Shown here in pieces: positions 26,489-62,751 of a DNA stretch of 64,000 nucleotides (positions are counted from its first letter, which is position 1; each line of letters starts with the position of its first letter). The stretch covers positions 665,489 to 729,488 of the forward strand of contig OY282375.1 in assembly GCA_958295825.1 (NCBI GenBank). The letters are read 5' to 3'. The DNA comes from an uncultured Candidatus Entotheonella sp. Its GTDB lineage: Bacteria > Tectomicrobia > Entotheonellia > Entotheonellales > Entotheonellaceae. A program made the translations under genes and the position numbers. The notes beneath the pieces are model-generated. The model worked only from the letters and a program-made list of their open reading frames with translations, did no database searches and was not told where the DNA came from.

Positions 26489-26600
26489 CGCGGCGTGAAC
26501 GTTCGTCGGGTTTCGCTGCCAGCAGGCGGCGGCTCAATAAGCCTGTCCCATGTAGGCCGGGTTGAGGTGCCCCATACCGCCGTCCACGCTGATCACTTGG
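26489..26600. repeat. Direct repeat copy B (about 112 bp) at the true SDR 3' end
   Basis: See copy A. The two copies flank the lipoprotein gene plus the IS1595 fragment. Confidence 0.8.
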
Positions 26601-31220: not shown

Positions 31221-31335
31221 CGGGCTTTGCACAAAAAGTCGGAATCCTGCACAAAAAGCCGGTCGCTGACCGACCGGAAGCAAGGTGTTCAGGTCGGCTG
31301 AAATTTTTACATTTTTGTCGTGCTGCAGGTTGAAC
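31221..31335. repeat. Dispersed repeat copy with GCACAAAAAG motifs
   Basis: About 93% identical (apart from a 20-nt internal duplication) to the reverse complement of 55801-55890. Shares the GGCTTTGCACAAAAAGTC motif with 37262-37312. Confidence 0.7.
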
Positions 31336-31378
31336 GCAGACTTGCTTGGTGAGGGTCAAAAGCGGTTTCAGCACCATG

Positions 31379-31421
31379 CAAAAAGGGCGGGCGCTTGCGC
31401 TGGGCGCCCGCCCTTTTTGCG
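31379..31421. terminator. Rho-independent terminator, bidirectional perfect hairpin
   Basis: caaaaagggcgggcgc-ttgcgctg-ggcgcccgccctttttg: GC stem flanked by A-run and T-run. Confidence 0.7.
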
Positions 31422-31510
31422 TTCGGGGACAGCGGATCGCCAAAAGGTTATTCTATAAGGGTCGTATCCGGGATTGGGGAAAGGCTGGGTCGTCCTGAAG
31501 GAGAAGAAAG

Positions 31511-32977: not shown

Positions 32978-34261
32978 ATGAGGAAAGATAAGGCGCTTGG
33001 GCGATTGCAGAAAATTTTGGATGAAGTTGATGGATTGAAGCAATTTTCTTCGTCGAGTTCTCCGCAATTTGAGAGATGGTGGAGAAACGCGGAGCTTGCT
33101 ATCGAGAAAGTATTTGGCAGTGACTCGAGTCATATCAAACGTTTTAAGAATGCAAGGGATGCTAGAGTAAATGTTGGAGTGCTTCTTTTTGTTAATTTCG
33201 GTCCGGTTGGTCCTGATGGGGTTAAGAAGGATTACATACAAGATTTAGAGTTCTATGCGGCTATGATTCAGTCTATGATTGATGAAGTCGGTGAGTATTG
33301 GGAGGATGGGAAAGAGGTATTGTCATCTTCTAGTTCTTCTAGCAGTCTTGGAAATGAGCAAATAATGACTGGCGATTTGAAGAAGAAAAAGGTCTTTCTG
33401 AGCCACAAGAGCGATGATAAGGAACTCGTGATCGACTTTAAGGAAACCTTGAAAATTCTAGGTTACGACCCATGGTTGGATGAAGATGCGATGTCTGCCG
33501 GTACGAGACTTGAACAAGGACTTCTTGAAGGCATGCAGGATTCCTGCGGCGTTGTTTTTTTTGTTACTTCGTCTTTCAAGGATGAGGGTTTTTTGAGCAC
33601 CGAAATTGACTATGCGATTCAAGAGGAGCGAAAGAAGGGTAATAAATTCAAAATTGTTACCTTGCAATTTGTTGATGCTGATGGCAACAGGAGTGAAATT
33701 CCGGGATTACTCAAGCGTTATGTTTGGAAAAAGCCGAAAACAAGGCTTGAAGCACTACGAGAGATTGTTCATGCGTTGCCTGTTGCTTCTTTGGGTATTG
33801 GCTGGCGGGGTGAAATTGGAGGAGTCGTTGTTAGGTCTGAGGGGGATGAAGGTGTTCTTGTTGGGTCTGAAAGGAGATTGGTAGTTGCAAGACTTTCTGA
33901 GGAAGCAAAGACTTTGCTGAAGACGGCAGTGGATAATAAAAAACAGATTGGGTATTTTTCTTATGGCAGTGGTGGTGTTGGTGAGCTTATTACTATGGGA
34001 GGAGAGGAGTTTTTGTCGTCTGATAAGGAGACGCTTGAAACAATGGCTAAGTGGAGAGGAGGTTTGAAGGATTTAGAAAGAGAAGGGTATGTCAAAAAGG
34101 AAGTTGAAGGAGAAGGAGATCAAGGTTTATATACGGTTACGCGAGAGGGTTATGAGGCAGCAGAATATTTGGAGATGGAAATTCAGGCGATACCAGAAAA
34201 AGTAAGAGTGTCGGTTGTTGGGAAAGAGGGTGATGAGGTTAGAAGCAGTTTCATAACTTAA
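32978..34261 (+). CDS. TIR-domain protein with the same uncharacterised N-terminal domain as the 11260 protein, plus a C-terminal extension; AT-rich
   Basis: N-terminus MRKDKALGRLQKILDEVDGLKQFSSSSSPQFERWWRNAELAIEKVFGSDSSHIKRF... is about 50% identical to the 11260 N-terminus. TIR motif KKVFLSHKSDDKELVIDFKETLKILGYDPWLDEDAMSAGTRLEQGLLEGMQDSCGVVFFVTSSFKDEGFLSTEIDYAIQE. The stop codon lies inside the IS left inverted repeat. Confidence 0.75.
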   Translation: MRKDKALGRLQKILDEVDGLKQFSSSSSPQFERWWRNAELAIEKVFGSDSSHIKRFKNARDARVNVGVLLFVNFGPVGPDGVKKDYIQDLEFYAAMIQSMIDEVGEYWEDGKEVLSSSSSSSSLGNEQIMTGDLKKKKVFLSHKSDDKELVIDFKETLKILGYDPWLDEDAMSAGTRLEQGLLEGMQDSCGVVFFVTSSFKDEGFLSTEIDYAIQEERKKGNKFKIVTLQFVDADGNRSEIPGLLKRYVWKKPKTRLEALREIVHALPVASLGIGWRGEIGGVVVRSEGDEGVLVGSERRLVVARLSEEAKTLLKTAVDNKKQIGYFSYGSGGVGELITMGGEEFLSSDKETLETMAKWRGGLKDLEREGYVKKEVEGEGDQGLYTVTREGYEAAEYLEMEIQAIPEKVRVSVVGKEGDEVRSSFIT

Positions 34262-34294
34262 TTTGCCATGAGGCCTCCTTTTGGTATGTAATCA

Positions 34295-34768
34295 ATGGCT
34301 GAAAGGAGGCCTGATATGAACCGCCATCAGAGTGAACTAAGCGATGAGCAGTGGGAAAAAATCGCTCCCTTCCTGCCCAAACCCCAAGCCTCGCCTTGGG
34401 GTGGACCCAAACCAATCCCCAATCGCCCTTGCTTCGAGGGCATCTTGTGGGTCCTTCGCAGCGGCGCCCGCTGGAAAGACCTGCCAGCGTCCTATCCTTC
34501 TCCCAGCACCTGTTGGCGTCGTCTGTGCCTCTGGGAGGAGCAAGAGGTGTGGCTTAAGGCATGGCGCGCCTTTCTGGCGCAACTTGACCGCCAAGGACAG
34601 CTTGATTGGGCCGAAACCTTTGCTGACGGCAGCTTTGCCCCGGCCAAAAAAGGGGGCCTTGCGTCGGCCCTACCAAGAAGGGCAAAGGTACGAAGTGGAG
34701 GGGGGTGGCAGACGGCCAAGGTGTTCCTCTGGGAAACCTCCTGGAATCGGCGTCCGCAGCGGAAGTGA
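34295..34768 (+). CDS. IS427-like transposase OrfA (DUF4096 N-terminal domain)
   Basis: MAERRPDMNRHQSELSDEQWEKIAPFLP...GGPKPIPNRPCFEGILWVLRSGARWKDLP... Confidence 0.8.
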   Translation: MAERRPDMNRHQSELSDEQWEKIAPFLPKPQASPWGGPKPIPNRPCFEGILWVLRSGARWKDLPASYPSPSTCWRRLCLWEEQEVWLKAWRAFLAQLDRQGQLDWAETFADGSFAPAKKGGLASALPRRAKVRSGGGWQTAKVFLWETSWNRRPQRK

Positions 34769-35100
34769 CCTTGATCGAGCGGGCCTTGACACAGGTGTCG
34801 GTGCCGCGTCGTGGCCGCGGTCGGCCTCGCCAAAAGCCCGCGCGCCTCATTGATGACAAGGCGGCGGACGCAGACGCCCTTCGCCAGCGTCTGCGGTCTC
34901 GGGGCATTGATTTGATTTGCCCGCATCGCAGAAACCGTAAACGAGCCTCCTTGCAGGATGGTCGCAAGCTGCGCCGTTACAAACGTCGTTGGAAAGTTGA
35001 GCGAAGATTTCCTGGGTGGGCAATTTTCGTCGCTTGGTGGTGCGCTGGGATCGCTATATTGAGGTCTACCGCGGCTTCTTTCATATCGCGTGCATGCTGA
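34645..35100 (+). CDS. IS427-like transposase OrfB (DDE C-terminal part), expressed as an OrfAB fusion by -1 frameshift or transcriptional slippage at AAAAAAG
   Basis: The -1 frame from the A-run reads ...KRGPCVGPTKKGKGTKWRGVADGQGVPLGNLLESASAAEVTLIERAL...LIDDKAADADALRQRLRSRGIDLICPHRRNRK...KRRWKVERRFPGW..., typical of IS427 OrfB. Confidence 0.7.
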   Translation, partial: QKRGPCVGPTKKGKGTKWRGVADGQGVPLGNLLESASAAEVTLIERALTQVSVPRRGRGRPRQKPARLIDDKAADADALRQRLRSRGIDLICPHRRNRKRASLQDGRKLRRYKRRWKVERRFPGWAIFVAWWCAGIAILRSTAASFISRAC

Positions 35101-35201
35101 TAACGCTGAATAAGCTTCTCAATGGCTTCTAACTCATTTGCTTGTGACTACCATCAGGTAGTTATGAAACAGCCTCTAGCCAGGATACCATGATAGTACA
35201 A

Positions 35202-39382: not shown

Positions 39383-41890
39383 ATGGCAAGCGACGCCGAG
39401 CTCGCTCGATCCTCCGCTTCTGATTCCACGCCCCTGTCCACGTCAGCCCCTTGCATCGCCAAGGTCGTCGTCGAACTTCCCATCGAAGACCCGCTTGACT
39501 ACCGCGTTCCGCCAGCTCTTGAGGAGCATTGTGCGGTGGGGCAACGGGTGATGGTGCCGGTCGGGCGCCGGGAACTTCTCGGCTACATCGTCGGGTTTGC
39601 CGCCCGCAGCACCGTAGCCGGTCTCAAACCGTTGAATGAGGTGCTGGACGAGACACCGGTGGTCCCGGCCGACCTGCTGCGGTTGACGAAGTGGGTTGCC
39701 GACTACTACCTGTGTTCGTGGGGTCAGGTCCTGAAGGCCGCCATGCCCGAGGGCTTCCGCGAACGCTCGGCCACCGTTTACGACCTGACCCCCGAGGCCC
39801 GGCAAGCGCCGGCGACATGGCCGGCGGGCAGGGCAGGGGAGGTGCTTCGTTGTCTGGAACGCCAAGGCGTCTTGCGCCGGCAAGACCTCGCCAAAGCCGT
39901 TGGCGCCGGCAACCTCGCGGCCTTGCTGCGGCGTCTGCAGAATCAAGGACTCGTCAGCCAGACCCGCCAGCGCCATGCTCCCAAGGTGCGGGAACGCACG
40001 ACAACCATGCTGCGCCTGCTTCCCGCGGCTGACGCCGCCCGAGCTCTGGTGGAACAGATTCGCCCCCGCGCTCCGAACCAGGCGCGGGTCCTGGCCTTCC
40101 TGCTGGAACAGCCGGCGTGCGAACTGAAGACGCTGCGTCGTCAGCTTGCGGGCGCCCCGGCTGCCGTCAAGCGCCTGCAGCAGCAGGGGGTCGTGGAGGC
40201 ATACGAGGTCGAGGACCTGCGCCGGGTCGTCCCGTCGCCGCCCGACCAGCCGCCCGCGCTGCCTGTCCTGAATGATGCCCAACGGCGTGCCCTGGAGCAG
40301 ATCGAGGTCAAGCTGGCGGCGCCGGACGGAATACCGATTCTGTTGCACGGCATTACCGGCAGCGGCAAGACCGAGGTTTACATGCGCGCGATTGCCGGCG
40401 TGCTCCGCCAAGGCAAATCGGCGCTTGTCCTGGTGCCTGAAATTGCTCTGACCGACCAACTCGTGCAGCGCTTTGCGGCCCGTTTTCCTTCCCGGCTCGG
40501 CGTTCTGCACAGCGGCCTTTCCGGCGGGGAACGCTTCGACGAATGGCGTCGTCTGGCGCGCGGCGAAGCCCAGATCGCCATCGGAACCCGCTCGGCGGTT
40601 TTCGCCCCGCTGCGGCATCTCGGCCTTATTGTCGTTGACGAAGAGCACGACACCTCCTACAAGCAGGAGGAAGCGCCGCGCTACAACGCCCGCGACGTCG
40701 CCATCGTTCGCGCTCGGCAGAGCGGGGCGGTGGTGGTCCTGGGCAGCGCGACCCCGGCGGTGGAATCGTTCCACAATGCCCAAACGGGCAAGTACCTGCT
40801 CCTGTCGCTGCCGCATCGTATCGACGACAAGCCGCTGCCGGCTATCACGCTGGTGGACCAGCGGGAGCACACGGCGCCGAACGAACGCATCGTCTCCGAC
40901 CCACTGCGGGAAGCCATCGCCGCCTGCCTGGAGCGCCGTGAACAATGCCTCATTCTGATTAACCGGCGCGGTTTTGCCGCCTACCTGCAATGCCGTGATT
41001 GCGGCACCGTTCCCTACTGCGAACATTGCAGCGTGGCGCTGACGTATCACCGCGGCACCCATAGACTGCGGTGCCATTACTGCGGCTTCAACCAAACGGT
41101 GCCGACATTCTGCACGGGGTGCGAAAGCGCCGCGCTGCGGCCCCACGGGCTCGGCACCCAGCAGGTCGAAGCGGTGCTGAGCGCGCTGTTTCCCGAGGCG
41201 CGCCTGGCCCGCATGGACCGCGACACCACGCGCGCCAAGGCGGCGCATCAGCGCATTCTGCGTGCCCTGGGCAACGGCGACATCGACATCCTGGTTGGTA
41301 CCCAGATGATTGCCAAAGGCCACGATTACCCCAACATCACCCTGGTCGGGGTGGTGTCCGCCGACGCCAGCCTGTCGATGCCCGACTTCCGGGCCCCCGA
41401 ACGCCTGTTGCAACTGCTGACCCAGGTCGCCGGGCGGGCCGGGCGAGGCGAACGCCCCGGACGCGTGCTCATACAGACCTACCGCCCGGAGCATGACAGC
41501 GTGACTTTCACCTACGAGCATGACTTCACCGGCTTCTTCCGACACGAGACCGCCCGGCGGCGGGACGTAATGTACCCGCCGTTTTCCCGCTTGGCGCGCT
41601 TGATTGTCGAGAGCCCCAAGGCCGAGCAGGCGGAGGCGACCAGCCAGCGCATCGGCCAGGAGTTGCAACGTCAGATTGCGCCGCGCTCTGACGTCACCGT
41701 CCTGGGGCCGGCCGAGACGCCCATCGCCAAGTTGCACGACCGCTACCGCTGGCACCTCCTCGTGAAGAGCGTGTCGAGCAAGGCGTTGCACCAATGCCTC
41801 ATCGCCGGATTGGCGGAAGCCCGCCGGCGCCAGGCTTTCCCGCGGTTGACGCGCGTCAGCGTGGATATTGATCCGGTCAGTTTTCTGTGA
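39383..41890 (+). CDS. priA: Primosomal protein N' (PriA replication-restart helicase)
   Basis: 835 aa. Helicase motifs HGITGSGKTEVY, VVDEEHD, GSATPA. Cys-rich zinc-binding region CRDCGTVPYCEHCSVALTYHRGTHRLRCHYCG. C-terminal domain. Confidence 0.9.
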   Translation: MASDAELARSSASDSTPLSTSAPCIAKVVVELPIEDPLDYRVPPALEEHCAVGQRVMVPVGRRELLGYIVGFAARSTVAGLKPLNEVLDETPVVPADLLRLTKWVADYYLCSWGQVLKAAMPEGFRERSATVYDLTPEARQAPATWPAGRAGEVLRCLERQGVLRRQDLAKAVGAGNLAALLRRLQNQGLVSQTRQRHAPKVRERTTTMLRLLPAADAARALVEQIRPRAPNQARVLAFLLEQPACELKTLRRQLAGAPAAVKRLQQQGVVEAYEVEDLRRVVPSPPDQPPALPVLNDAQRRALEQIEVKLAAPDGIPILLHGITGSGKTEVYMRAIAGVLRQGKSALVLVPEIALTDQLVQRFAARFPSRLGVLHSGLSGGERFDEWRRLARGEAQIAIGTRSAVFAPLRHLGLIVVDEEHDTSYKQEEAPRYNARDVAIVRARQSGAVVVLGSATPAVESFHNAQTGKYLLLSLPHRIDDKPLPAITLVDQREHTAPNERIVSDPLREAIAACLERREQCLILINRRGFAAYLQCRDCGTVPYCEHCSVALTYHRGTHRLRCHYCGFNQTVPTFCTGCESAALRPHGLGTQQVEAVLSALFPEARLARMDRDTTRAKAAHQRILRALGNGDIDILVGTQMIAKGHDYPNITLVGVVSADASLSMPDFRAPERLLQLLTQVAGRAGRGERPGRVLIQTYRPEHDSVTFTYEHDFTGFFRHETARRRDVMYPPFSRLARLIVESPKAEQAEATSQRIGQELQRQIAPRSDVTVLGPAETPIAKLHDRYRWHLLVKSVSSKALHQCLIAGLAEARRRQAFPRLTRVSVDIDPVSFL

Positions 41891-42122: not shown

Positions 42123-42341
42123 ATGGCTGAAGAATTTGTCCGCAAGGAGCACTTCGACGAGTCCGCCGTTCGTATAGATGAGCGTTTTCTTGGCATTGAA
42201 AAGCGGATGGAACAGGGTTTTGCCCACGCGGAAAAGGCACGGGAACAGAGTTTTGTTCATCTCAACCAGCGGCTCGATAGCATTGAACGCCGCCCACCGC
42301 ACCCGCACTTCCGCGACGCTACCAATCCGAGCGACTCTTGA
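42123..42341 (+). CDS. Small hypothetical protein
   Basis: 72-aa ORF with a GGAAAGGGGAACA-ATG RBS. Charged and helical, no recognisable family. Confidence 0.3.
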   Translation: MAEEFVRKEHFDESAVRIDERFLGIEKRMEQGFAHAEKAREQSFVHLNQRLDSIERRPPHPHFRDATNPSDS

Positions 42342-42350
42342 GGGAATCCC

Positions 42351-44355
42351 CATGCGAGCCCTGGAAATGCGCGCCGTAGCCCGGTGCATCGTCCGTTTCA
42401 GCCGTGACCGCAAGGCGTGTCTGTACTACACCGCCTGCGTCGTCTTGCTTGTCGCCGCGGCGGGGCTGCGCTTCCATGATCTGTCCGAGCACCAGCTACG
42501 GTTCGACGAAGCGGTAACGGCCAACAATTCGAGAGGCACACTCTCGGAAGTCGTCTCAGGCACTCGTTGCTGCAACTCCAATCCGATCCTGTACCCCTTG
42601 GTCCTGTACGCGGTGCAGAAAGTCGAGAGCACGATCTTCAGCGTCCGAATTGTGCCGGCGACGGCCAGCGTTCTGACCATCGCCTTGATGCTCTTCTTTC
42701 TGCCGCGCCTCGGCGTCGCTCGGGGCGCCGCGTTTCTGGCGGCCCTGCTCGCCACGCTTTCCGTTGAGGCAATCCGGCACGCCCAGGATGTGCGGGAATA
42801 TTCCATTGACGCGCTGGTGGCCCTGTTCATGGTGGCGGGGCTGCTACGGTATCTGCGAGACGGAAGGACCGCCCTGCTCTGCGTCTCTCTGTTCCTCGCG
42901 CCGCTTCTCCAGTACGGCTTGGTCCTGTTCGGCGCCGCCGTCATTGGCGCCGCCCTCGTCGCTCCACGCGTCTCCGGACAGGGAAGGTGGAGTGCCTATC
43001 CTGGCCGGATTGGTGGCTGGCTGAAAAGGCGCCTGGACTTGGCCGCGCCCTGTGGGTTCTTCCTGGCCGGAGGTGCCTTGAGTTACTTGGCGACCTTGCG
43101 CCATCAATGGCAGGAAGGGGGGTTCGCCTCGGGTAGTTATTTATCGGGGTATTACTATCAGGAAAAATTCGATGCGTACTCGATTTTCGAGTTTTCGATT
43201 GACGGTATTTGGAGCTTGTTGAAGTATCATTTGCCGGAGGTTGTTGCGATAGCGGCGCTTCCCGCATTCGCGATCCTCCTGATCGCGGCGTTCCTCCGGC
43301 AATTTCAATACGGCGCCATCGCAGTTTCATTCTCGTTTTGCATTGCGGTTTCCGTCGGTGCTGCCGTGCTGGGCATATATCCGCTTGGGGATATTAGGCA
43401 AAGCATCTATCTGGGTCCGATTATTTTCCTGGCGGTCGGTTTGGCGTTTCATTCAGGAGCTGACGCGCTGGCGTCGACCGCACGGCAAGCATGGCTGGGG
43501 CCCCTATTGATCGTGTTATCCGCAAGCGCAGTAGTGCTTTCCGGAGTAGATGCCATACGGCAGATAGATTTGTACCGGCCCCATGACAAAGGCGAGGAGA
43601 TTGTTTCCGTACTACAGGAGCGCACACAAGAAGATGATGTTTTATGCTATCACAGAGACAATCGAGAACTTATAGAATTCCATCTAAAACCGGATCGAGG
43701 AAGGTTAGTATTTGATGGATTAGTTTTTGACGGAAAGGTAGGTCGTGGGTATGGAGAAGAACTATGTTTACAAGAAATGATCGACGAGATCACTCCGTGG
43801 ATTGGAAGAAGCAGACTCTGGTTGGTCTCCAAATACCCTCTGCCCTTTCTGGGAATGCTGCAGACGATGGCCGCGCACGTTCTGGTTGAGCACGTCGTTT
43901 CTGATGGAACACCCAATCTCTATCTGATTGAAGATGCGAAATCCTTGATTCAAATCGCCACCGCCACTGATATGTTTCGAGACATAAAGCCAATCCTACC
44001 TCGCGAGCCGTCAATCCGCTCCACCTTCGACATCTATCTCCGCGGGAACACACTGGTCTATTTCAAGGAACCGTGCGGCGCAGAGTACATGCAGGCAACC
44101 TTCTTCCTGCACTACCAGCCCGTTCACGGGGACGACCTGCCGGCTGATCGCCAACAATATGGCTTCGATGGCGTCCACTTCAACATCTTCGGCTCCAACA
44201 TCTTCAACATCCAAGAGATGCCAGTCGAGCAATGCGTCGCTTCGCAAGAGTTGCCCGACTACGCCATCGCCCTCATCCGCACCGGCCAGTTCTCGTCTAA
44301 TGAGGACGGCTCCTACACAAACATCTGGGAAGGCGAGATCCGCTTCGATGAGTAG
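42351..44355 (+). CDS. GT-C-fold glycosyltransferase (ArnT/PMT family 39-like) membrane protein with a large C-terminal soluble domain
   Basis: N-terminal ~430 aa carry more than 10 TM helices with an ArnT/PMT-like loop arrangement. The ~230-aa C-terminal domain is unassigned. The start is taken at the ATG at 42351 (MRALEMRAVARC...). Confidence 0.6.
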
Positions 44356-44563: not shown

Positions 44564-44653
44564 GGCGAGTGGTCATCTGTACAGGTCCATAGGACTTCCC
44601 AACGCATTCTGTAAGCTTGATTCCTTCGGCAGTTTGTCGTATTTCCCATTAGG

Positions 44654-44766
44654 AAGCGCCGCGTTACAACGCCCGCGACGTTGCCATCGTTCGCGCCCGG
44701 CAGAGCCGGGCGGTGGTGGTCCTGGGCAGCGCGGTCCCAGCAGTGGAATCGTTCCACAATGCCCAA
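44654..44766 (+). repeat. Displaced about 113-bp duplicate of an internal priA segment
   Basis: About 93% identical to 40670-40783 (priA codons ...[38 protein letters not shown]). Confidence 0.75.
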
Positions 44767-45391: not shown

Positions 45392-48300
45392 ATGACCCTC
45401 GACGCACTCCGAACCTACTGCAATCAGATAACCCGAATCCACGCCACCGGACAGGCCACCGAGCATAGTTATCGTCCGGCTTTCGCGTCCCTGGTCGAAG
45501 CACTGGGCGGCGGCCAGGTCCGGGCGCTCAACGAGCCGTCGCACGTCGCCTGCGGCGCCCCGGACTTCATCGTTGAGCGCCACGGCGTGCCCACGGGTCA
45601 TATCGAATGCAAGAACGTCAGCGTCCACCTGGACGACGTTGAAAACAATGCGCAACTCCGCCGCTACCGCGACGGCCTGCCCAATCTGATCCTTACCAAC
45701 TATCTGGAATTTCGCTGGTATACGGCAGGCCAGCGACGCAAGATCGCCTGCCTCGGACGCTTTGACGGCCAAAACAAAATGGCCTTCGACAGGGTGGGCG
45801 CCGAACAGGTCAGCGCCTTGTTCGACGGCTTCTTTGCCGCCGACCTGCCGATGATCGACAACCCGCGCGAGCTGGCCGAGCGTATCGCCGCCAAGGCGCG
45901 GCTGCTGCGTGACGGCGTGGAGCGTATTTTCGCGCAGGAAAACCCATCCGGGCCGTTGCATGACCTGTTGACGGCCTATCGGCAGGTTCTGATTCAAAAC
46001 CTCAAGCCCACCGATTTCGCCGACCTGCAGGCGCAGACCGCTACCTACGGCCTGTTCGCGGCACGCTGCCAGCACGAGCCGTCGAGGCCATTCACCCGAA
46101 AAGAAGCGATCTTCGCAAAGACAACGCCATTCCTGCGCGACGTCTTTGGCCGCATCGCCGGCCCGGACATCGACCCGCGCATTGCCTGGATCGTGGATGA
46201 TCTGGCGCGCCTCCTGGACCGGGCGGACATGGCGGCGATCCTGACCGATTTCGGCCGGCGCACCCGGCAGGAAGACCCGGTGGTTCATTTCTACGAAGAC
46301 TTCCTGGCCGCCTACGACCCGAAATTGCGCGAAGTGCGCGGCGTCTACTACACGCCCGAGCCGGTCGTCTCCTACATCGTGCGCAGCGTGGATCACCTGC
46401 TACGCGACCGCTTCGGCCTTGCCGACGGCCTCGCCGACACGGCAACGGTTACAGTCGAAAGACCGGACGGCGAACAGGAGACCAGCCCGCGCGTGCTGAT
46501 TCTCGACCCTGCGGCAGGCACCGGCACGTTCCTGCGCGAGGCGATTGCCACAATCCGCGCCACCATCGAGAACAAGGGACTCGGCGGCGTCTGGCCGGGC
46601 TACGTGCGGGACCATCTGTTGCCGCGCCTGTTCGGATTCGAGTTGCTGATGGCGCCCTACGCCATTTGCCATCTGAAGCTGGCGCTGGAGATTGGCGGCG
46701 CGGAGGCGGACTTCACCATGCCGGCGGGCGAGCGGCTGCGGGTTTTTCTCACCAACACGCTGGAGGAACCGCACGAGCGGAGCGGCGCGCTGTTCGCCCA
46801 CGAGATCGTTCGTGAAGCGGCCGGCGCCGATGACGTGAAGCGCAAGAAGCCGGTGATGGTAGTGCTCGGCAACCCGCCGTATTCCGGTCATTCCGCCAAC
46901 AAGGGCGCGTGGATCGCGGAACTGATCGATGACTACAAACGCGGCTTCCCCGAGTTGCAAAAACCGGCGCAGGCAAAATGGCTGAGCGACGACTACGTCA
47001 AATTCACCCGCTTCGCCCAATGGCGGATCGAGCGCAGCGGCGAAGGCGTGCTCGGCTTCGTCACCAATCACGGCTGGCTGGACAACCCGACCTTTCGCGG
47101 CATGCGCCACAGCCTGATGGAAACCTTCGACGAGATTCACGTGCTCGATCTGCACGGCAACGCCAAGAAGAAAGAACGCGCGCCGGACGGGGGCAGGGAC
47201 GACAACGTGTTCGACATTCAGCAAGGCGTCGCCATCGGCTTGTTCGTCAAGCGGTCGGATACCGCCGCCAGACCGGCGCGGGTGTTTCACGCCGACGTGT
47301 GGGGGGAGCGCGAGGCGGGACCCGACGGGGGCAAATACGGCTGGCTCGCCGCCAATGGCGTTGAAACAACGGAGTGGACGGAGCTTGCGCCCAAACCGCC
47401 GCTCTACCTGTTCATCCAGCGTGACGAAGAATTGCTCGGGGAGTACGAGGCGGGGTGGTCCATTCCGGCGATTTTCTCGCCGAACGGCGACCCGGCGCCG
47501 GGGATCGTCACGACGCACGATCAATTTGCGATTTCATGGACCCCGGAAGAAGCCGCGGCCAAAGTGGAGCGTCTGCTTGCCACGACCTCGGAGGACGAGG
47601 CGCGCAGCCAATGGCGTCTATGTTCGCAGAACCAATGGGAGTACGGTCGCGCCAAGCGCGAACTCGCGGACGGCTCGTGGCGCGAACGGATTGAACCGAT
47701 TCTCTATCGCCCGTTCGATGTCAGAACGACCGTGTTCGACGGCAACGTCGCCGTTCACCGGCGCGAGCGTGTCATGCGCCACATGTTGAATGGGAAGAAT
47801 CTGGCGCTGATAATTCCCAAGCAGCATAGGGATGAATTCGGTACTTTAGCGGCGCAATTCATCAGCGCCCATAAAGCCGTTGCGGCCTACGATATCAATT
47901 ATCATTTCCCCCTCTACGTCTATCCATCTACATATCGCCGAGAACCCAATATCGACCAGGACTTCATCAAGACCCTCTCCGCCGCTACCGGTCTCGCCTT
48001 CGTCCCGGACGGCACGGGCGATCTCGAAACCACGTTCGGGCCGGAAGCCGTCTTCCACTACGTCTACGCCATCCTCCACAGTCCCGAATACCGCCGCCGG
48101 TACACCGATTTCCTGAAGTCGGACTTCCCGCGCATCCCGCTGACCAAGGACTGCGAGCTGTTCACGAAACTCGCCACCCTCGGCAAGCAACTCGCCGCCT
48201 TGCATCTCATGGAAACAGAAGGGGAGAACTCACCGGCCTTTCCCGTCGCCGGTTCCAATCGCATGGAGAAGGCGCGGTATGCGCCACCGAACGATGGCCT

Positions 48301-48547
48301 GCCGGGCCGGGTGTGGATCAACCGCGACCAGTATTTCGAGGGCGTTACTCCAGCCACCTGGACCTTCGCCATCGGCGGCTACCGCCCGGCCGAGAAGTGG
48401 CTGAAAGACCGCAAGAACCGCGTCCTGTCGTTCGAGGACATCATTCACTACCGCAGAATCTGCGCGGCGCTCGCTGCAACGCCGGACATCATGGCCCGAA
48501 TCGACGAAACGATTATCGTGTGTGGCGGCTGGCCGCTGACCTGCTGA
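45392..48547 (+). CDS. MmeI-family single-chain restriction-modification enzyme, copy 1 (type IIL/IIG: N-terminal PD-ExK nuclease, gamma-class N6-adenine MTase, C-terminal TRD)
   Basis: N-terminal nuclease-like ...PDFIVERHGVPTGHIECKNV. MTase motifs GVYYTPEPVVSYIV, LDPAAGTGTFL and LGNPPYSG. C-terminal region ...FHYVYAILHSPEYRRRYTDFLKSDFPRIPL...GGYRPAEKWLKDRK... as in MmeI-family TRD/C-terminal modules. GGAAGG RBS before the ATG at 45392. Confidence 0.8.
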   Translation: MTLDALRTYCNQITRIHATGQATEHSYRPAFASLVEALGGGQVRALNEPSHVACGAPDFIVERHGVPTGHIECKNVSVHLDDVENNAQLRRYRDGLPNLILTNYLEFRWYTAGQRRKIACLGRFDGQNKMAFDRVGAEQVSALFDGFFAADLPMIDNPRELAERIAAKARLLRDGVERIFAQENPSGPLHDLLTAYRQVLIQNLKPTDFADLQAQTATYGLFAARCQHEPSRPFTRKEAIFAKTTPFLRDVFGRIAGPDIDPRIAWIVDDLARLLDRADMAAILTDFGRRTRQEDPVVHFYEDFLAAYDPKLREVRGVYYTPEPVVSYIVRSVDHLLRDRFGLADGLADTATVTVERPDGEQETSPRVLILDPAAGTGTFLREAIATIRATIENKGLGGVWPGYVRDHLLPRLFGFELLMAPYAICHLKLALEIGGAEADFTMPAGERLRVFLTNTLEEPHERSGALFAHEIVREAAGADDVKRKKPVMVVLGNPPYSGHSANKGAWIAELIDDYKRGFPELQKPAQAKWLSDDYVKFTRFAQWRIERSGEGVLGFVTNHGWLDNPTFRGMRHSLMETFDEIHVLDLHGNAKKKERAPDGGRDDNVFDIQQGVAIGLFVKRSDTAARPARVFHADVWGEREAGPDGGKYGWLAANGVETTEWTELAPKPPLYLFIQRDEELLGEYEAGWSIPAIFSPNGDPAPGIVTTHDQFAISWTPEEAAAKVERLLATTSEDEARSQWRLCSQNQWEYGRAKRELADGSWRERIEPILYRPFDVRTTVFDGNVAVHRRERVMRHMLNGKNLALIIPKQHRDEFGTLAAQFISAHKAVAAYDINYHFPLYVYPSTYRREPNIDQDFIKTLSAATGLAFVPDGTGDLETTFGPEAVFHYVYAILHSPEYRRRYTDFLKSDFPRIPLTKDCELFTKLATLGKQLAALHLMETEGENSPAFPVAGSNRMEKARYAPPNDGLPGRVWINRDQYFEGVTPATWTFAIGGYRPAEKWLKDRKNRVLSFEDIIHYRRICAALAATPDIMARIDETIIVCGGWPLTC

Positions 48548-51133: not shown

Positions 51134-51616
51134 ATGATGCTGCCCCCCCCTGACCGTCGCTTGATCGAAGACTACCTGCCACTGGACGAACTCAACGCCA
51201 TCGCCGGGAAGGAGAAGAAGCATCCCAAGCACCCGGTGGCGCTCGTTCACTATTGGCCGGCGTGCCGACCGACGACCGCTTCTCGGGCCGCTATCTATGC
51301 CGAGTTGGTTCCCGCGCCGAACTCCGATGGCGAACGCACCGAATCCACATCGTTCGTCACCAATCTCGCCGCGTTCAAGCCCGATCCCAATATCCTCAGC
51401 AAGGTAAGAGAGCGAATCAGGACCCAACACGGCAGGCGAGCGCCCAATGACGTCGCCAAAACGATCAGCAAGTATTTACTCGACGTCGAAAACCCTCTTT
51501 CAAAACGCCTTATCCACGCTTTAACCAACCAAATTCAACCTTCAGATGCCGTAGGCGGCAAAAAAAGGAGATCGACCCATGGGCTATTGCATAGACCGCG
51601 TCAACAGGAGACCTAG
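51134..51616 (+). pseudogene. N-terminal fragment of a DUF1156/COG1743 adenine-specific DNA methylase (component of DUF1156-DUF499 defence loci)
   Basis: MMLPPPDRRLIEDYLPLDELNAIAGKEKKHPKHPVALVHYWPACRP... matches the DUF1156 N-terminus (IEDYLP...E.S...reK........lH.WWARRP). Only 160 codons remain and the rest is unrelated. Confidence 0.45.
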
Positions 51617-52123: not shown

Positions 52124-52477
52124 ATGGAAAAACACCCAGTACAAGTCAAGGAAAAATGCTACATTGAAATTGTACAGGTGGGCATCTTGACGCTCTATGT
52201 CGAGCGCCAGGACCTCAACATGCGGATGGGAATGCGCCGCTTCACTCGCCTCACGAACGCTTTCAGCAAGAAGATGGCCAACCACATGGCGATGGTGGCT
52301 CTGTACACGGCGTTCCATAACTTCTGCCGCCTTCACACCTCGTTGCGCATGACACCAGCAATGGCGGCTGGTTTGAGCATGGAACTTCACGATACGGAGT
52401 GGACCGCTGGACTGATCGACGCCCGAACTCAGAAGCCGAATCGTCCCAAAACTTACCGCAAGCGAATTTCAAACTAG
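52124..52477 (+). pseudogene. C-terminal fragment of a DDE transposase (family uncertain, possibly IS1595-like)
   Basis: ...MRMGMRRFTRLTNAFSKKMANHMAMVALYTAFHNFCRLHTSLRMTPAMAAGL..., a conserved transposase C-terminal block. The stop codon is overlapped by the IS427-like copy 2 left end. Confidence 0.4.
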
Positions 52478-53179
52478 AAGCAGTTTCATAACTTAATTTG
52501 CCATGAGGCTTCCTTTTGGTATGCAATCAATGGCTGAAAGGAGGCCTGACATGAACCGCCATCAGAGTGAACTAAGCGATGAGCAGTGGGAAAAAATCGC
52601 TCCCTTCCTGCCCAAACCCCAAGCCTCGCCTTGGGGTGGACCCAAACCAATCCCCAATCGCCCTTGCTTCGAGGGCATCTTGTGGGTCCTTCGCAGCGGC
52701 GCCCGCTGCAAAGACCTGCCAGCGTCCTATCCTTCCCCCAGCACCTGTTGGCGTCGTCTGTGCCTCTGGGAGGAACAAGAGGTGTGGCTTAAGGCATGGC
52801 GCGCCTTTCTGGCGCAACTTGACCGCCAAGGACAGCTTGATTGGGCCGAAACCTTTGCTGACGGCAGCTTTGCCCCGGCCAAAAAAGGGGGCCTTGCGTC
52901 GGCCCTACCAAGAAGGGCAAAGGTACGAAGTGGATGGTGGTGGCAGACGGCCAAGGTGTTCCTCTGGGAAACCTCCTGGAATCGGCGTCCGCAGCGGAAG
53001 TGACCTTGATCGAGCGGGCCTTGACACAAGTGTCGGTGCCGCGTCGTGGCCGCGGTCGGCCTCGCCAAAAGCCCGCGCGCCTCATATCGCGTGCATGCTG
53101 ATAACGCTGAATAAGCTTCTCAATGGCTTCTAACTCATTTGCTTGTAACTATCATCAGGTAGTTATGAAACAGCCTCTA
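52475..53179 (+). mobile_element. IS427-like (IS5 family) copy 2 with an about 230-bp internal deletion
   Basis: Same terminal inverted repeats and the same orfA (52530-53003) as copy 1. The sequence jumps from the equivalent of about 34850 to about 35080 of copy 1, removing most of orfB. Flanked by TA. Confidence 0.8.
52530..53003 (+). CDS. IS427-like transposase OrfA, copy 2
   Basis: MAERRPDMNRHQSELSDEQWEKIAPFLPKPQ... is near-identical to 34295-34768. The slippery AAAAAAG run is retained. Confidence 0.75.
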   Translation: MAERRPDMNRHQSELSDEQWEKIAPFLPKPQASPWGGPKPIPNRPCFEGILWVLRSGARCKDLPASYPSPSTCWRRLCLWEEQEVWLKAWRAFLAQLDRQGQLDWAETFADGSFAPAKKGGLASALPRRAKVRSGWWWQTAKVFLWETSWNRRPQRK

Positions 53180-55800: not shown

Positions 55801-55890
55801 AATAGTCCTGCAGCACGACAAAAATGTAAAAATTTCAGCCCGCCTGAGCACCTTGCTTCCGGTCGATCAGCGACCGACTTTTTGTGCAAA
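55801..55890. repeat. Dispersed repeat copy, inverted relative to 31221-31335
   Basis: tcctgcagcacgacaaaaatgtaaaaatttcagcccgcctgagcaccttgcttccggtcgatcagcgaccgactttttgtgcaaagccg. Directly abuts the IS5-family element. Confidence 0.7.
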
Positions 55891-55899
55891 GCCGATGAA

Positions 55900-57100
55900 G
55901 ACATAAGGGCATCTCTAATAATACACATCTCCCACTTGGTTTAGAATTACTGAACCACGTTAACCAACAAGATGGGAGGAGTTGAGCATGGGTCAGATGG
56001 GCTTTTTCGATGTCGAGAATCGCTACGCCGCTTTGGACGCCAGGAATGACCCCCTGGTGAAGATCAATGCCGTTGTGCCGTGGGAAGCATTCCGCAGCCG
56101 CCTGGAGAGCGTCTGGCGTAAGCCGCCCGACGAGCGCAAGTCGAACGCGGGGCGCCAACCTTGGGACGCCATCGTCATGTTCAAAGCCATCCTTCTGTGC
56201 GCCCTCTACAACCTGTCGGATGACCAAGGCGAGTACCAGATGCGCGACCGCCTGTCCTTCGTGCGCTTCCTGGGCTTGGCCCTTGAAGACAAGGTGCCGG
56301 ACGCCAAGACCGTGTGGCTCTACCGTGAGCAGTTGTCACAGGCTGGCCTCATGGAGGCCTTGTTCGAGGATGTCGACGCTTACCTGAAAAGCCAAGGCTA
56401 CCGAGCGATGGGCGGCCAGATCATTGATGCTTCGATTGTGGCGGTTCCCATTCAACGCAATCGTCGTGACGAAAACGAGCACGTCAAGCGCGGTGAGCTA
56501 CCCGAGGCCTGGACTGACAAGCCGGCCAAGCGTCGGCAAAAGGACAGGGATGCGCGTTGGACAAAGAAGCACGGCAAGAGCCACTACGGCTACAAGAACC
56601 ACGTCACCGTTGACCGTCGGCACAAGCTGATCCGGCGTTATCGGGTGACGACGGCGGCGGTCCACGACAGCCAGGTCCTTGAGGAGTTGTTGACGTCGGA
56701 CAACACGGCACGCGGCGTCTGGGCGGATAGCGCCTACCGGTCGAAAGACATTGAAGCAAAGGTGAAAGCCAAGGGCCTGACAAGTCGGATACACCGCAAG
56801 GCTTCTCGTAACCGTCCGTTGCATGCTTGGGAGAAAGCGGGCAACCGGCGTCGTTGCCGGTTTCGAGCACGGGTAGAGCATGTCTTCGGCGCGCAGCAAA
56901 ACGACATGGGCGGGACGCTGGTTCGCAGTATCGGACTTGTACGAGCGAGGGCGCGGATAGGTCTCAAGAACCTCGCTTACAACATGCGGCGTCTGGTTCA
57001 ATTGCAACGTCTGGCGAGGGTAGGTTAAGCGCCAAGGGTGCGGAAGGGTACGCCGGAGTCCCCATTGACAGGCGAATCCCCCCTGAACAGCCGAGTTCAT
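55900..57100 (+). mobile_element. IS5-family insertion sequence (single DDE transposase); ends not delimited
   Basis: Contains the transposase gene at 55988-57028. Terminal inverted repeats could not be identified by eye, so the boundaries are approximate. Confidence 0.55.
55988..57028 (+). CDS. IS5-family DDE transposase (DDE_Tnp_1)
   Basis: ...RQPWDAIVMFKAILLCALYNLSDDQGEYQMRDRLSFVRFLGL...GQIIDASIV...WTKKHGKSHYGYKNHVTVDRRHKLIRRYRVTTAAVHDSQ...ADSAYRS..., with an IS5-type D, D, E spacing. GGGAGGAG RBS. Confidence 0.85.
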   Translation: MGQMGFFDVENRYAALDARNDPLVKINAVVPWEAFRSRLESVWRKPPDERKSNAGRQPWDAIVMFKAILLCALYNLSDDQGEYQMRDRLSFVRFLGLALEDKVPDAKTVWLYREQLSQAGLMEALFEDVDAYLKSQGYRAMGGQIIDASIVAVPIQRNRRDENEHVKRGELPEAWTDKPAKRRQKDRDARWTKKHGKSHYGYKNHVTVDRRHKLIRRYRVTTAAVHDSQVLEELLTSDNTARGVWADSAYRSKDIEAKVKAKGLTSRIHRKASRNRPLHAWEKAGNRRRCRFRARVEHVFGAQQNDMGGTLVRSIGLVRARARIGLKNLAYNMRRLVQLQRLARVG

Positions 57101-59346: not shown

Positions 59347-59544
59347 AGAAACACAAAAAACATGATCTTGACACACCACAACCAGACGCCAATAAAGCGT
59401 CAAACGATGAGCAATGGCTTTCAGAACACCTTGAATCACATCCGGTCCATCACTACTTCGGAAGCCAGGAAAGACCGGATCTTCGAACGCCTGATGAAGA
59501 TGTACTTCGTTCAAGACCCGCTTTACCAAGGTCATTTCTCCCAT

Positions 59545-62500
59545 GTTCCGAACCTACTGCAATCAGATAACCCGAATCCAAGCCACCGGACAGGCCACCG
59601 AGCATAGTTATCGTCCGGCTTTCGCGTCCCTGGTCGAAGCACTGGGCGGCGGCCAGGTTCGGGCGCTCAACGAGCCGTCGCACGTCGCCTGCGGCGCCCC
59701 CGACTTCATCGTTGAGCGCCACGGCGCGCCCACGGGTCATGTCGAATGCAAGAACGTCAGCGTCCATCTGGACGACGTCGAAAACAATGCGCAACTCCGC
59801 CGCTACCGCGACGGCCTGCCCAATCTGATCCTCACCAACTATCTGGAATTTCGCTGGTATACGGCAGGCCAGCGACGCGAGACCGCCTGCCTCGGACGCT
59901 TTGACGGCCAAAGCAAAATGGCCTTCGACAGGGTAGGCGCCGAACAAGTCGGCGCCTTGTTCGACGGCTTCTTTGCCGCCGACCTGCCGATGATCGACAA
60001 CCCGCGCGAGCTCGCCGAGCGTATCGCCGCCAAGGCGCGGCTGCTGCGTGACAGCGTGGAGCGCATTTTCGCGCAGGAAAACCCATCCGGGCCGCTGCAT
60101 GACCTGTTGACGGCCTACCGGCAAGTTCTGATTCAAAACCTCAAGCCCGCCGATTTCGCCGACCTGCAGGCGCAGACCGCTACCTACGGCCTGTTCGCGG
60201 CACGCTGCCAACACGAGCCGTCGAGGCCGTTCACCCGAAAAGAAGCGATCTTCGCAAAGACAACGCCATTCCTGCGCGACGTCTTTGGCCGCATCGCCGG
60301 CCCCGACATCGACCCGCGCATCGCCTGGATCGTGGACGATCTGGCGCGCCTCCTGGACCGGGCGGACATGGCGGCGATCCTGACCGATTTCGGCCGGCGC
60401 ACCCGGCAGGAAGACCCGGTGGTTCATTTCTACGAAGACTTCCTGGCCGCCTACGACCCGAAACTGCGCGAAGTGCGCGGCGTCTACTACACGCCCGAGC
60501 CGGTCGTCTCCTACATCGTGCGCAGCGTGGACCACCTGCTACGCGACCGCTTCGGCCTTGCCGACGGCCTCGCCGACACGGCAACGGTTACAGTCGAGAG
60601 ACCAGACGGCGAACAGGAGACAGGCCCGCGCGTGCTGATTCTCGACCCTGCGGCAGGCACCGGCACGTTCCTGCGCGAGGCGATTGCCACAATCCGCGCC
60701 ACCATCGAGAACAAGGGGCTCGGCGGCGTCTGGCCAGACTACGTGCGGGACCATTTGCTGCCGCGCCTGTTCGGGTTCGAGTTGCTGATGGCGCCCTACG
60801 CCATTTGCCATCTGAAGCTGGCGCTGGAGATTGGCGGCGCGGAGGCGGATTTCACCATGCCGGCGGGCGAGCGGCTGCGGGTTTTTCTCACCAACACGCT
60901 GGAGGAACCGCACGAGCGGAGCGGCGCGCTGTTCGCCCACGAGATCGTACGTGAAGCGGCCGGCGCCGATGACGTGAAGCGCAAGAAGCCGGTGATGGTG
61001 GTGCTCGGCAACCCGCCGTATTCCGGTCATTCCGCCAACAAGGGCGCGTGGATCGCGGGGCTGCTTCGTGGACGGGATGGAGAAGAGAAAACAGGCAGCT
61101 ATTTCGAGGTAGATGGGCAACCGCTTGGTGAGATGAATCCAAAATGGTTGAACGACGACTACGTCAAATTCACCCGCTTCGCCCAATGGCGGATCGAGCG
61201 CAGCGGCGAAGGCGTGCTCGGCTTCGTCACCAATCACGGCTGGCTGGACAACCCGACCTTTCGCGGCATGCGCCACAGCCTGATGGAAACCTTCGACGAG
61301 ATTCACGTGCTCGATCTGCACGGCAACGCCAAGAAGAAAGAACGCGCGCCGGACGGGGGCAGGGACGACAACGTGTTCGACATTCAGCAAGGCGTCGCCA
61401 TCGGCTTGTTCGTCAAGCGGTCGGATACCGCCGCCAGACCGGCGCGGGTGTTTCACGCCGACGTGTGGGGTGAGCGCGAGGCGGGACCCGACGGGGGCAA
61501 ATACGGCTGGCTCGCCGCCAACGACATTGCAGGCACGCGCTGGACGGAACTTTTCCCGAAGCCGCCTTTTTATTTGTTCGTGCCCCGGAACGAAGCGCTT
61601 GCAGAAGAATACGAGAGCGGCTGGAAACTGACGGACGTGTTCCCCGTCCATTCGGTTGGTATCGTCACCGCCCGCGATGAGTTGGCAATCCAGTGGACTG
61701 CCGACGACATGCGGAAGACAGCTGCGGACTTCGTTGCGCGTGGAGTCGAGGAAGCACGAAACATCTACGGACTTGGGGAGGATGTTCGAGACTGGAAGGT
61801 GTCATGGGCACAGGAGGACGTGCGTTTGCATCCCGATTCCGGCAAGTACGTCAAACCTGTCCTGTATCGTCCTTTCGATACCCGGTTCACGTACTACACG
61901 GGTAAATCACGTGGTTTCATCTGTATGCCTCGCCCCAAAGTCATGCGCCACATGTTGAATGGGAAGAATCTGGCACTGATAATTCCCAAGCAGCATAAGG
62001 ATGAATTCGGTACTTTAGCGGCGCAATTCATCAGCGCCCACAAAGCCGTTGCGGCCTACGATATCAATTATCATTTCCCCCTCTACACGTATCCCGAGAG
62101 CAGGGAAGGTCTCATTCCCGACACTCGAGAACCCAATATCGACCAGGACTTCATCAAGCCCCTCTCCGCCGCTACCGGTCTCGCCTTCGTCCCGGACGGC
62201 ACGGGCGATCTCGAAACCACGTTCGGGCCGGAAGCCGCCTTCCATTACGTCTACGCCATCCTCCACAGTCCCGAATACCGCCGCCGGTACGCCGGTTTCC
62301 TGAAGTCGGACTTCCCGCGCATCCCGCTGACCAACGACCGCGAGCTGTTCACGAAACTCGCCGCCCTCGGCAAGCAACTGGCCGCCTTGCATCTCATGGA
62401 AACAGAAGGGGAGAACTCACCGGCCTTTCCCGTCGCCGGTTCCAATCGCATGGAGAAGGCACGGTATGCGCCGCCGAACGACGGTCTGCCGGGCCGGGTG

Positions 62501-62734
62501 TGGATCAACCGCGACCAGTATTTCGAGGGCGTTACTCCGGCCACCTGGACCTTCGCCATCGGCGGCTACCGCCCGGCCGAGAAGTGGCTGAAAGACCGCA
62601 AGGGCCGCGTCCTGTCGTTCGAGGACATCATTCACTACCGCAGCATCTGCGCGGCGCTCGCTGCAACGCCGGATCTCATGGCCCGAATCGACGAAACGAT
62701 TATCGTGTATGGCGGCTGGCCGCTGACCTGCTGA
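59545..62734 (+). CDS. MmeI-family single-chain restriction-modification enzyme, copy 2 (5' junction differs; TRD diverged from copy 1)
   Basis: Near-identical to copy 1 from ...RTYCNQITRI through the MTase domain, including PDFIVERHG...HVECKNV, LDPAAGTGTFL and LGNPPYSG. Blocks about 61060-61140 and about 61520-62100 differ (...DIAGTRWTELFPKPPFYLFVPRNEALAEEYESGWKLTDVFPVHSVGIVTARDELAIQWTADDMRK...). The similarity to copy 1 starts at 59545, with a fortuitous ATG at 59543. Confidence 0.75.
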
Positions 62735-62751
62735 CAGGAAAGGTACAAATC

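Follow-up and report, generated by a model that had tools for sequence, protein, structure and literature searches.

We analyzed a 64,000-nucleotide stretch of DNA (the window) from an uncultured Candidatus Entotheonella sp. (assembly GCA_958295825.1, contig OY282375.1, positions 665,489–729,488), which carries two closely related genes for single-chain restriction-modification (RM) enzymes, here termed copy 1 and copy 2. The explanation that we favor, at a probability of roughly 0.78, is that they are a pair of DrdV-like paralogs with differing recognition modules, forming a mosaic made by recombination. The locus would then be a clear but not unprecedented case in which recombination gives a bacterium two restriction specificities, a prediction that comes from comparing sequences.

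Mosaic divergence between the two genes

An open reading frame (ORF) scan placed both genes on the + strand, as is every feature of the two genes given below, in direct orientation and 14 kb apart in a defense island adjoining priA. Copy 1 (45392–48547) is intact, encodes 1051 aa identical to database protein P0001, and has its native 5' end (MTLDAL...). Its open frame extends 5' to a TTG at 45347, but we prefer the ATG at 45392 as the start because GGAAGG lies 8–13 nt upstream and because the product then matches the 1051 aa of P0001. Copy 2 (59543–62734) is an intact, 5'-truncated paralog whose 1063-aa product is identical to database protein P0010.

By blastn, 45408–47429 matches 59547–61595 and 47771–48560 matches 61940–62747, both at 94%. 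Homology runs from codon 6 of copy 1 (45408/59547) to 13 nt beyond the stop codons, and a 3.1-kb repeat at such identity cannot have arisen by chance. Sliding nucleotide identity is 95–100% outside discrete blocks, with the catalytic scaffold ∼97% identical between the copies (∼3% divergence). The original prediction, made from the letters of the window alone, had described near-identical paralogs with divergent blocks and had proposed a pairwise nucleotide alignment as a check. This description was borne out by blastn, by sliding identity and by the block limits; breakpoints are sharp, and the divergence is gathered into mosaic blocks rather than spread uniformly.

Limits of the blocks were set by flanking exact matches. 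Block B1, with only 40% nucleotide identity, is a loop of the methyltransferase (MTase) domain that follows the NPPY motif. Its copy 1 allele (46920–46986, aa 510–532) is of a "short" morph, ELIDDYKRGFPELQKPAQAKWLS, and its copy 2 allele (61059–61152, aa 506–537) is of a "long" morph, GLLRGRDGEEKTGSYFEVDGQPLGEMNPKWLN. Block B2 forms the N-terminal part of the target recognition domain (TRD), at 47356–47770 (aa 655–793) in copy 1 and 61522–61939 (aa 660–799) in copy 2, with 47% nucleotide and 35–37% amino acid identity. Block B3 is a short indel block, with a short loop (...PSTYR...) at 47918–47938 in copy 1 and ...PESREGLIPDT... at 62087–62125 in copy 2. Between B1 and B2 is a run of 318 nt without a single difference (46987–47304 = 61153–61470), which is a recent gene-conversion tract. 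Just before the conserved FPLY motif is a further segment, V2, at 47780–47917 in copy 1 (aa ∼797–842, ...NGKNLALIIPKQHRDEFGTLAAQFISAHKAVAAYDINYHFPLY) and 61949–62086 in copy 2; it is common to both copies, at 97% identity. We use V1 for the linked module made up of B1, the MTase loop, together with B2, the first subdomain of the TRD, and M block for the stretch between B1 and B2.

Two divergent blocks had been predicted. B1 coincides with the two peptides then singled out, but the TRD block measures ∼139 aa instead of ∼190 aa, and B3 had not been listed. The accompanying description of the TRDs as swapped is right in that the B2 part of the TRD differs; it is too simple in that the MTase loop B1 and the loop B3 differ as well, while V2 is 97% identical.

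Enzyme family and architecture

Both proteins are DrdV-like Type IIL enzymes (a subclass of Type IIG), single-chain RM enzymes whose domain order is an N-terminal PD-ExK nuclease, a helical connector, a gamma-class N6-adenine MTase and a C-terminal Type_ISP_C TRD. That a nuclease, a gamma-class MTase (NPPY) and a TRD are united in a single chain, as first proposed, was upheld by Pfam, PADLOC and conserved motifs. Pfam Type_ISP_C matched the two proteins at E-values of 4e-79 and 2e-88 (267 and 297 bits, against a cutoff of 25.9), and Pfam N6_Mtase was above cutoff in both (E 6e-9 and 2.5e-8). The PADLOC model REase_MTase_IIG (PDLC03610) was matched over its full length, at E 3e-265 for copy 1 and 8e-276 for copy 2.

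A sequence search of the PDB returned DrdV (7LO5, E 4e-39), then LlaBIII and LlaGI, and no further solved relatives; a 94-sequence profile extended the match to DrdV (E 1e-58 over aa 301–1025). We also modeled copy 1 with AlphaFold2 (mean pLDDT 77, pTM 0.55). Residues 134–290 are helical in this prediction, and the best Foldseek match of the model was again DrdV (7lo5, E 3e-36), in an alignment of ∼1130–1150 columns that takes in essentially the full length of both proteins. Type ISP enzymes followed, and then BrxX/PglX and CamA.

The PD-ExK nuclease domain occupies 45392–45841 in copy 1 and 59543 to ∼59980 in copy 2, with E24, P57-D58 and E72-C73-K74 present as the same residues in both. Among 94 homologues D58, E72 and K74 are invariant, and E24 is at least 90% conserved. 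In the profile alignment E24, P57-D58 and E72-x-K74 pair with DrdV E25, P63-D64 and E79-x-K81, although the N-terminal alignment alone is not significant; the DrdV paper names E25, D64, E79 and K81 as nuclease active-site residues. The MTase catalytic core (46505–46882 in copy 1) runs from motif I, DPAAGTGTF (aa 372–380), to motif IV, NPPY (aa 494–497), and is identical in copy 2; the MTase motifs, too, are conserved among the 94 homologues. Pfam-type domain scans gave no helicase or ATPase family match in either protein, and there was no hsdM- or hsdS-like gene among the neighbors, which are toxin-antitoxin, insertion sequence (IS), AriAB-like ATPase and SIR2 genes.

Other family assignments were tried and rejected. 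The MmeI family, to which the genes had originally been assigned, does not apply: Pfam MmeI_Mtase reached 17 bits against a cutoff of 27, the MmeI_N, MmeI_hel, MmeI_TRD and MmeI_C families had no match, and MmeI and BpuSI were absent both from the PDB sequence matches and from the best 50 Foldseek matches. A Type ISP enzyme is likewise a poor fit, the proteins having 1051 and 1063 aa with no ATPase domain, and their alignments to LlaBIII and LlaGI being limited to the MTase-TRD halves (residues 840–1523 and 676–1353, respectively). For PglX/BrxX of BREX systems the fold match is distant (E 7e-11, 11–12% identity), no brx genes are nearby, and the window proteins have a nuclease motif.

Predicted recognition surface

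The DrdV paper lists base-contacting side chains both in the MTase domain (N448, Q485, K486, K488, N548, R554 and D564) and in the TRD (N673, R721, Y764, D803 and K807), and these were placed on the window proteins by pairwise and profile alignments. DrdV Q485, K486 and K488 align at the C-terminal end of B1, which reads PAQAKW in copy 1 and EMNPKW in copy 2. Three TRD contacts align to B2: N673 with high confidence (IVT-T-HDQ in copy 1 vs IVT-A-RDE in copy 2), R721 with lower confidence (K in copy 1 vs Q in copy 2), and Y764 at the end of the block. D803 and K807 fall in V2, 5–11 residues before FPLY, with moderate confidence, and N548, R554 and D564 align in a block that is identical between the copies.

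On these alignments, the predicted reading surface is partly different between the copies (in B1 and B2, perhaps B3), and the rest of it, V2 and the MTase core, is common to both. Because B1 and B2 align with DrdV base contacts while V2 is common to both, we expect two different target sites, possibly related or partly overlapping. This is the least secure step of our explanation.

Concerted evolution in related genomes

A sister genome (ENA ERZ19489113, locus L001 on a 3.97-Mb contig) has a priA gene 98.5% identical in nucleotide sequence to that of the window, and its island also carries two paralogs, RMa (P0121, 1063 aa) and RMb (P0122, 1077 aa). In a four-way alignment, copy 1 combines the short V1 (S) with V2 type alpha and a short B3. 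Copy 2 and RMa each combine the long V1 (L) with V2 alpha and a long B3, and RMb has V1 L, V2 beta and a long B3. V2 is the sole difference between RMa and RMb, which are identical over the ∼1.3 kb spanning B1, M and B2. The M block has one difference within the window and none within L001, but nine, all synonymous, in every between-genome comparison. Along the window and L001 genes the nearest neighbor shifts segment by segment.

The ends of the genes are also permuted. The native 5' end (MTLDAL) is found in copy 1 and RMb, and copy 2 and RMa begin instead at a junction with a gene stub, described below. At the 3' side, an Xre-RES-DUF1156 flank follows copy 1 and RMa, and a SIR2 gene follows copy 2 and RMb. 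Flanks of the paralogs have been exchanged between the window and L001, and therefore the gene blocks stand in permuted order, with RM genes at the joints. We considered excision of an RM-flanked circle and its reinsertion, converting the L001 order to the window order in one step; this fits the exchanged flanks but not every junction.

More distant relatives also have multiple copies. In ERZ21830300 (locus L084), with a priA ∼87% identical to that of the window, two paralogs lie beside priA; their N-terminal 500 aa are 97% identical to each other and 86–87% identical to those of the window copies, and they differ in both V1 and V2. An Alphaproteobacteria metagenome-assembled genome (OZ241745.1) has four paralogs, arranged as two tandem pairs, and within each pair V2 is the main difference. 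In this genome the paralogs, with ORFs from 10272 and 13746 at locus L036 and from 6352 and 9823 at locus L038, are 84–90% identical in amino acid sequence, with >90% identity in alignment windows other than V2. Taken across these genomes, the sequence patterns bear the mark of a scaffold in concerted evolution, while diversity of the recognition modules has been maintained or imported.

Module assortment across the family

The family is large, with all 8000 scored candidates at E ≤ 1e-20, and in the genome collection it was found almost only in metagenome-assembled genomes. Lineages named in the record titles include Candidatus Synechococcus spongiarum, Candidatus Poriferisodalis, Latescibacterota, Dehalococcoidia and Bryobacterales, which are typical marine-sponge symbionts.

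Throughout the family B1 is dimorphic, either short or long. Combinations of B1 morph with B2 type numbered 93 short/c1-like, 49 long/c2-like, 0 short/c2-like and 4 long/c1-like; these counts and the cluster numbers below are approximate, ∼14 sequences having been counted twice as locus-derived ORFs with 5' extensions. There is linkage between B1 morph and B2 type, and the four long/c1-like cases are recombinants. V2 is the most variable segment, at ∼35% identity in most homologues vs 97% between the window copies. Segments were clustered by average linkage and by pairwise comparison, since single linkage at 50% identity merged everything; at 60% identity this gave 20 clusters for V2, 13 for B2 and 3 for the M block.

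We then asked how V1 and V2 combine in 483 pairs whose N-terminal 500 aa are at least 85% identical. The four classes of same or different V1 by same or different V2 held 191, 125, 121 and 46 pairs. All four classes are common, and V1 and V2 thus assort independently on one scaffold.

A broader proposal, which we offer only tentatively and regard as somewhat doubtful, is that in marine-sponge symbionts of many phyla this family forms arrays of 2–4 paralogs, with scaffolds held identical by gene conversion and V1 and V2 reshuffled independently among the paralogs and incoming alleles, amounting to a combinatorial specificity library. If that were true, there would be a readable two-module "recognition code", provided that the two modules read separate parts of the target.

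The 5' end of copy 2

Copy 2 had been predicted to be truncated at its 5' end, starting at a fortuitous ATG without the ribosome-binding site (RBS) of copy 1. This proved correct: homology begins at codon 6, and the ATG is supplied by a gene stub upstream. The stub (59407–59546, + strand) comprises the N-terminal ∼47 codons of an Mrr-type (Type ISP-like) nuclease gene and abuts copy 2 in another reading frame, its last codons forming the copy 2 ATG (cAT Gtt). It matches positions 4–47 of the 1646 in PADLOC PDLC03597, a Type ISP-like model, at E 8e-6. One stub homologue carries Pfam PF13156 (Mrr_cat_2); the stub itself had no PDB, Pfam or plasmid match.

Homologues of the stub in the protein database are all short (ORFs of 49–79 aa). 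We looked up two of them (L082 6001–6192 and L083 6001–6210), and they lie in other defense islands, beside CBASS/BrxR genes and a CRISPR-Cas locus, respectively. With homologues that are only short and that are found in other islands, it follows that the N-terminal stub recurs without the rest of its gene.

The stub is conserved at 98% in L001 and in L002, an alternative haplotig from the sister sample. Its junction with copy 2, followed by an intact ORF, is present in L001, and the junction is conserved in L002. This conservation in both indicates that the stub fusion is old and that the gene has been kept open. In the N part, copy 1 and copy 2 differ by synonymous and non-synonymous codons in a proportion of 30:11. 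The same proportion for copy 2 vs RMa is 27:14 in the N part, 12:0 across B1 and M together, and 8:6 in B2. Since its ORF is intact and under constraint, copy 2 is probably expressed, and we infer that expression would be driven by upstream signals.

Proposed mechanism

By analogy with DrdV, each enzyme would bind an asymmetric 6–7 bp site in the cleft between MTase and TRD, flip one adenine out and methylate one strand, protecting the host. Cleavage would follow at a fixed distance downstream once several enzyme-bound unmodified sites meet. As for the history of the pair, the comparative patterns described above point to homologous recombination as the process that produces and maintains the mosaic. 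Gene conversion between the paralogs would keep the scaffold near-identical within a genome, and the recognition modules would be exchanged with diverged alleles, or retained from them. When copy 2 was fused to the nuclease-gene stub, in an older event, it lost codons 1–5 and its own RBS.

Alternative explanations

Several points weigh against this explanation. The expectation of different specificities depends on alignment to a structure of 21–22% identity, in which the placements of R721 and of D803/K807 have only moderate confidence. B1 and B2 are dimorphic, with 70–98% identity within each morph, rather than hypervariable; being so well conserved, V1 could set something besides base specificity. 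An upstream sequence scan of copy 2 found neither a recognizable RBS nor a consensus promoter. Codon differences between the copies in the C-terminal 200 aa stand at 8:11 synonymous to non-synonymous, indicating relaxed constraint there, and gene conversion from copy 1 could keep the copy 2 ORF intact without selection. The path of rearrangement between the window and L001 cannot be reconstructed as a single event. Finally, the source is probably a metagenome-assembled genome, so that strains may have been mixed.

The conservation of V1 allows an alternative in which the two copies represent a structural dimorphism with no change of specificity. With V2 in common, both enzymes would read the same site, and copy 2 would be redundant or would differ in regulation or in cleavage geometry. 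Such a reading suits the existence of only two conserved B1 morphs, each with its well-conserved B2, and also the fact that V2, the most diverse segment of the family (20 clusters vs 13 for B2), is yet 97% identical in both copies. We nonetheless consider it unlikely: five or six of the DrdV base contacts outside the conserved MTase core align inside B1 or B2, and the residues at contact positions differ, as Q/N and A/P in B1 and as T/A and K/Q in B2. Retention of two 3.2-kb genes of equal specificity at one locus in three genomes would also be hard to explain.

Another alternative concerns expression. Copy 2 might be a decaying pseudogene, or a silent donor of modules to copy 1, whose frame is open only through gene conversion. 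Consensus scans for promoters and terminators around both genes gave nothing informative, and copy 2 has a truncated 5' end, an out-of-frame stub fusion and no Shine-Dalgarno-like sequence at the normal distance; gene conversion between the copies is evident. Even so, its 1063 codons are intact and include all catalytic motifs, and the junction and intact ORF are kept in the sister genome at 95.8% nucleotide identity. Differences from the L001 ortholog are mostly synonymous, and they include differences in the copy-2-specific B1 and B2 (11:6), which are beyond repair by copy 1. A silent copy 2 is therefore improbable in our view.

The pair had been interpreted at first as cassette-like specificity switching. 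If this means a programmed, reversible form of phase variation, in which the two genes swap TRD cassettes at high frequency within a population, we think it very unlikely, and the proposal of a dedicated system was dropped for lack of cassettes, inverted repeats, simple-sequence repeat (SSR) tracts or a recombinase. It could draw on the presence of the paralogs in one island, on the long perfectly identical tracts that flank the variable modules, and on the occurrence of other module combinations at the same locus in related genomes. However, the copies are direct repeats, both genes are complete, and no inverted repeats were found in 44–64 kb of the window. A tblastn search of the window with both proteins and P0122 returned only the two genes, with no partial or silent cassette, and a scan for phase-variation signals found no SSR tracts. 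There is no tyrosine or serine (site-specific) recombinase among the annotated neighbors, although IS transposases are present. The ∼3% scaffold divergence between the copies also argues that module exchange is episodic, not continuous. As far as sequence can tell, homologous recombination of the ordinary kind, together with gene conversion over evolutionary time, explains the pair better than a dedicated switch does.

That two strain alleles were set in tandem in a metagenome-assembled chromosome is extremely improbable, even with relatives that are all metagenome-assembled and an alternative haplotig (L002) in the sister sample, since the copies have entirely different flanks with 11 kb of unique genes between them, independent assemblies of other samples also have two paralogs at the priA locus, and another genome has four.

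Island context and other features of the window

The RM genes belong to a defense island downstream of priA, with a lower G+C content than the first ∼30 kb of the window. The island also holds an Xre-RES toxin-antitoxin pair, a DUF1156 fragment, IS5-family elements, an 8xMP protein gene, an AriAB-like ATPase-DUF4435 gene and a large SIR2_2 gene. This last gene (62753–64000) runs off the end of the window, encoding 1260 aa in L001; it starts 19 nt past the copy 2 stop codon, likewise following RMb in L001, and may be co-transcribed with copy 2. In the window version a short stretch near the start is duplicated in tandem, giving VPDQSRTNRDQVPDQSHIN vs VPDQSHIN in L001. The DUF1156 fragment is a 160-aa ORF (51134–51616), conserved in L001, that may be a truncated gene, as only the N-terminal DUF1156 domain is present.

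Repeats and mobile elements were noted around the RM genes. A 116-bp internal fragment of priA occurs twice (40668–40783 and 44651–44766, 93% identical), the latter lying 640 nt upstream of copy 1. Between priA and the repeated fragment is a 725-aa gene with no Pfam match (42178–44355) that is absent from L001. At L084 a deformylase fragment precedes one of the RM paralogs. The priA and deformylase fragments may be footprints of insertion with target duplication. An IS5-family element (DUF4096 + DDE) is present in two copies that are 98.5% identical (34240–35179 and 52474–53179), and also in L001 (17326–18268); a further IS5-like transposase gene (55982–57028) is in the window but absent from L001. 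A repeat of ∼80–180 bp occurs in both orientations at island junctions, at 31228–31429 and 55807–55896 in the window and at 4615–4724, 7496–7597 and 13484–13673 in L001. It looks like a miniature inverted-repeat transposable element, or another recombination-prone element, at block boundaries.

Elsewhere in the window, a second defense cluster (8179–15193) lies between two hydantoinase/oxoprolinase genes. It encodes a 1009-aa N6_N4_Mtase protein, a CAP12/Pycsar-type TIR protein (11257–12066) and an 894-aa ResIII helicase-nuclease, and resembles a Type III-like RM system into which a TIR effector gene has been inserted. The segment 32975–37273 has low G+C (0.49–0.55, with a GC3 of 0.39 in its first gene) and encodes a 428-aa TIR_2-domain protein together with a SocA/Panacea antitoxin-like gene; this, too, was probably acquired horizontally as a defense or toxin-antitoxin segment. 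A 106-bp direct repeat (97%) at 25143–25248 and 26502–26607, 1.3 kb apart, flanks a 328-aa ORF.

Implications

Single-chain Type IIL enzymes use one surface both to cut and to methylate, and therefore any recombination that swaps the recognition surface yields a new, self-consistent restriction system in one step. Under our explanation of the pair as DrdV-like paralogs with differing recognition modules, this locus and its relatives provide natural chimeras on a near-constant scaffold: the window has S-alpha with L-alpha, the sister genome has L-alpha with L-beta, and there are others elsewhere. Used together with methylome data, such chimeras could show which segment reads which part of the target, and a mapping of this kind would aid the prediction and engineering of the specificities of DrdV and Type ISP TRDs. 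The locus also documents concerted evolution of defense-gene paralogs, and their role at rearrangement joints, in an uncultured and probably sponge-associated bacterium. The gain is incremental, since both Helicobacter and the MmeI family already provide examples of the principle.

Comparison with known systems

DrdV of Deinococcus wulumuqiensis (Type IIL; PDB 7LO5 and 7LVV) is the best match in both sequence and fold, over essentially the whole length. It has the same domain order and a similar size (1029 aa vs 1051 and 1063 aa), and alignment matches the residues of the nuclease active site as well as the NPPY and YRPF landmarks. It differs in having only 21–22% identity to the window proteins, and descriptions of it concern a lone gene rather than paralog pairs whose modules are exchanged.

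The enzymes LlaGI and LlaBIII of Type ISP (PDB 5FFJ and 4XQK) are homologous in the MTase and TRD half (Type_ISP_C; E 1e-35 to 1e-50). By comparison, the window proteins are ∼500 aa shorter and lack the helicase-like ATPase, the coupler and the Mrr-type nuclease, with a PD-ExK nuclease of the DrdV kind instead.

Enzymes of the MmeI family (Type IIL; MmeI, BpuSI) are alike in concept and domain order, with one recognition module for methylation and cleavage, but they form a sequence family separate from that of the window proteins. In the account of Morgan & Luyten (2009) given in the DrdV paper, the use of one module for both activities eases the emergence of new Type IIL specificities.

Movement of TRDs by recombination at conserved flanks has been described in RM genes of Helicobacter pylori (Furuta et al. 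2011, PMC3077401; Furuta & Kobayashi 2012, PMC3467074). The likeness lies in recognition domains moving between alleles or paralogs by way of conserved flanks, which makes specificity more diverse while the catalytic parts stay constant. The Helicobacter cases involve S subunits of Type I and Type IIG systems and mod genes of Type III, whereas the window enzyme is single-chain and DrdV-like, its two modules assort separately, with one of them spanning the MTase domain and the TRD, and concerted evolution of the paralog scaffolds is clear. What the analysis adds is the occurrence of multi-copy DrdV-like arrays in uncultured symbionts, the two separately assorting modules, and the clean evidence of gene conversion between paralogs.

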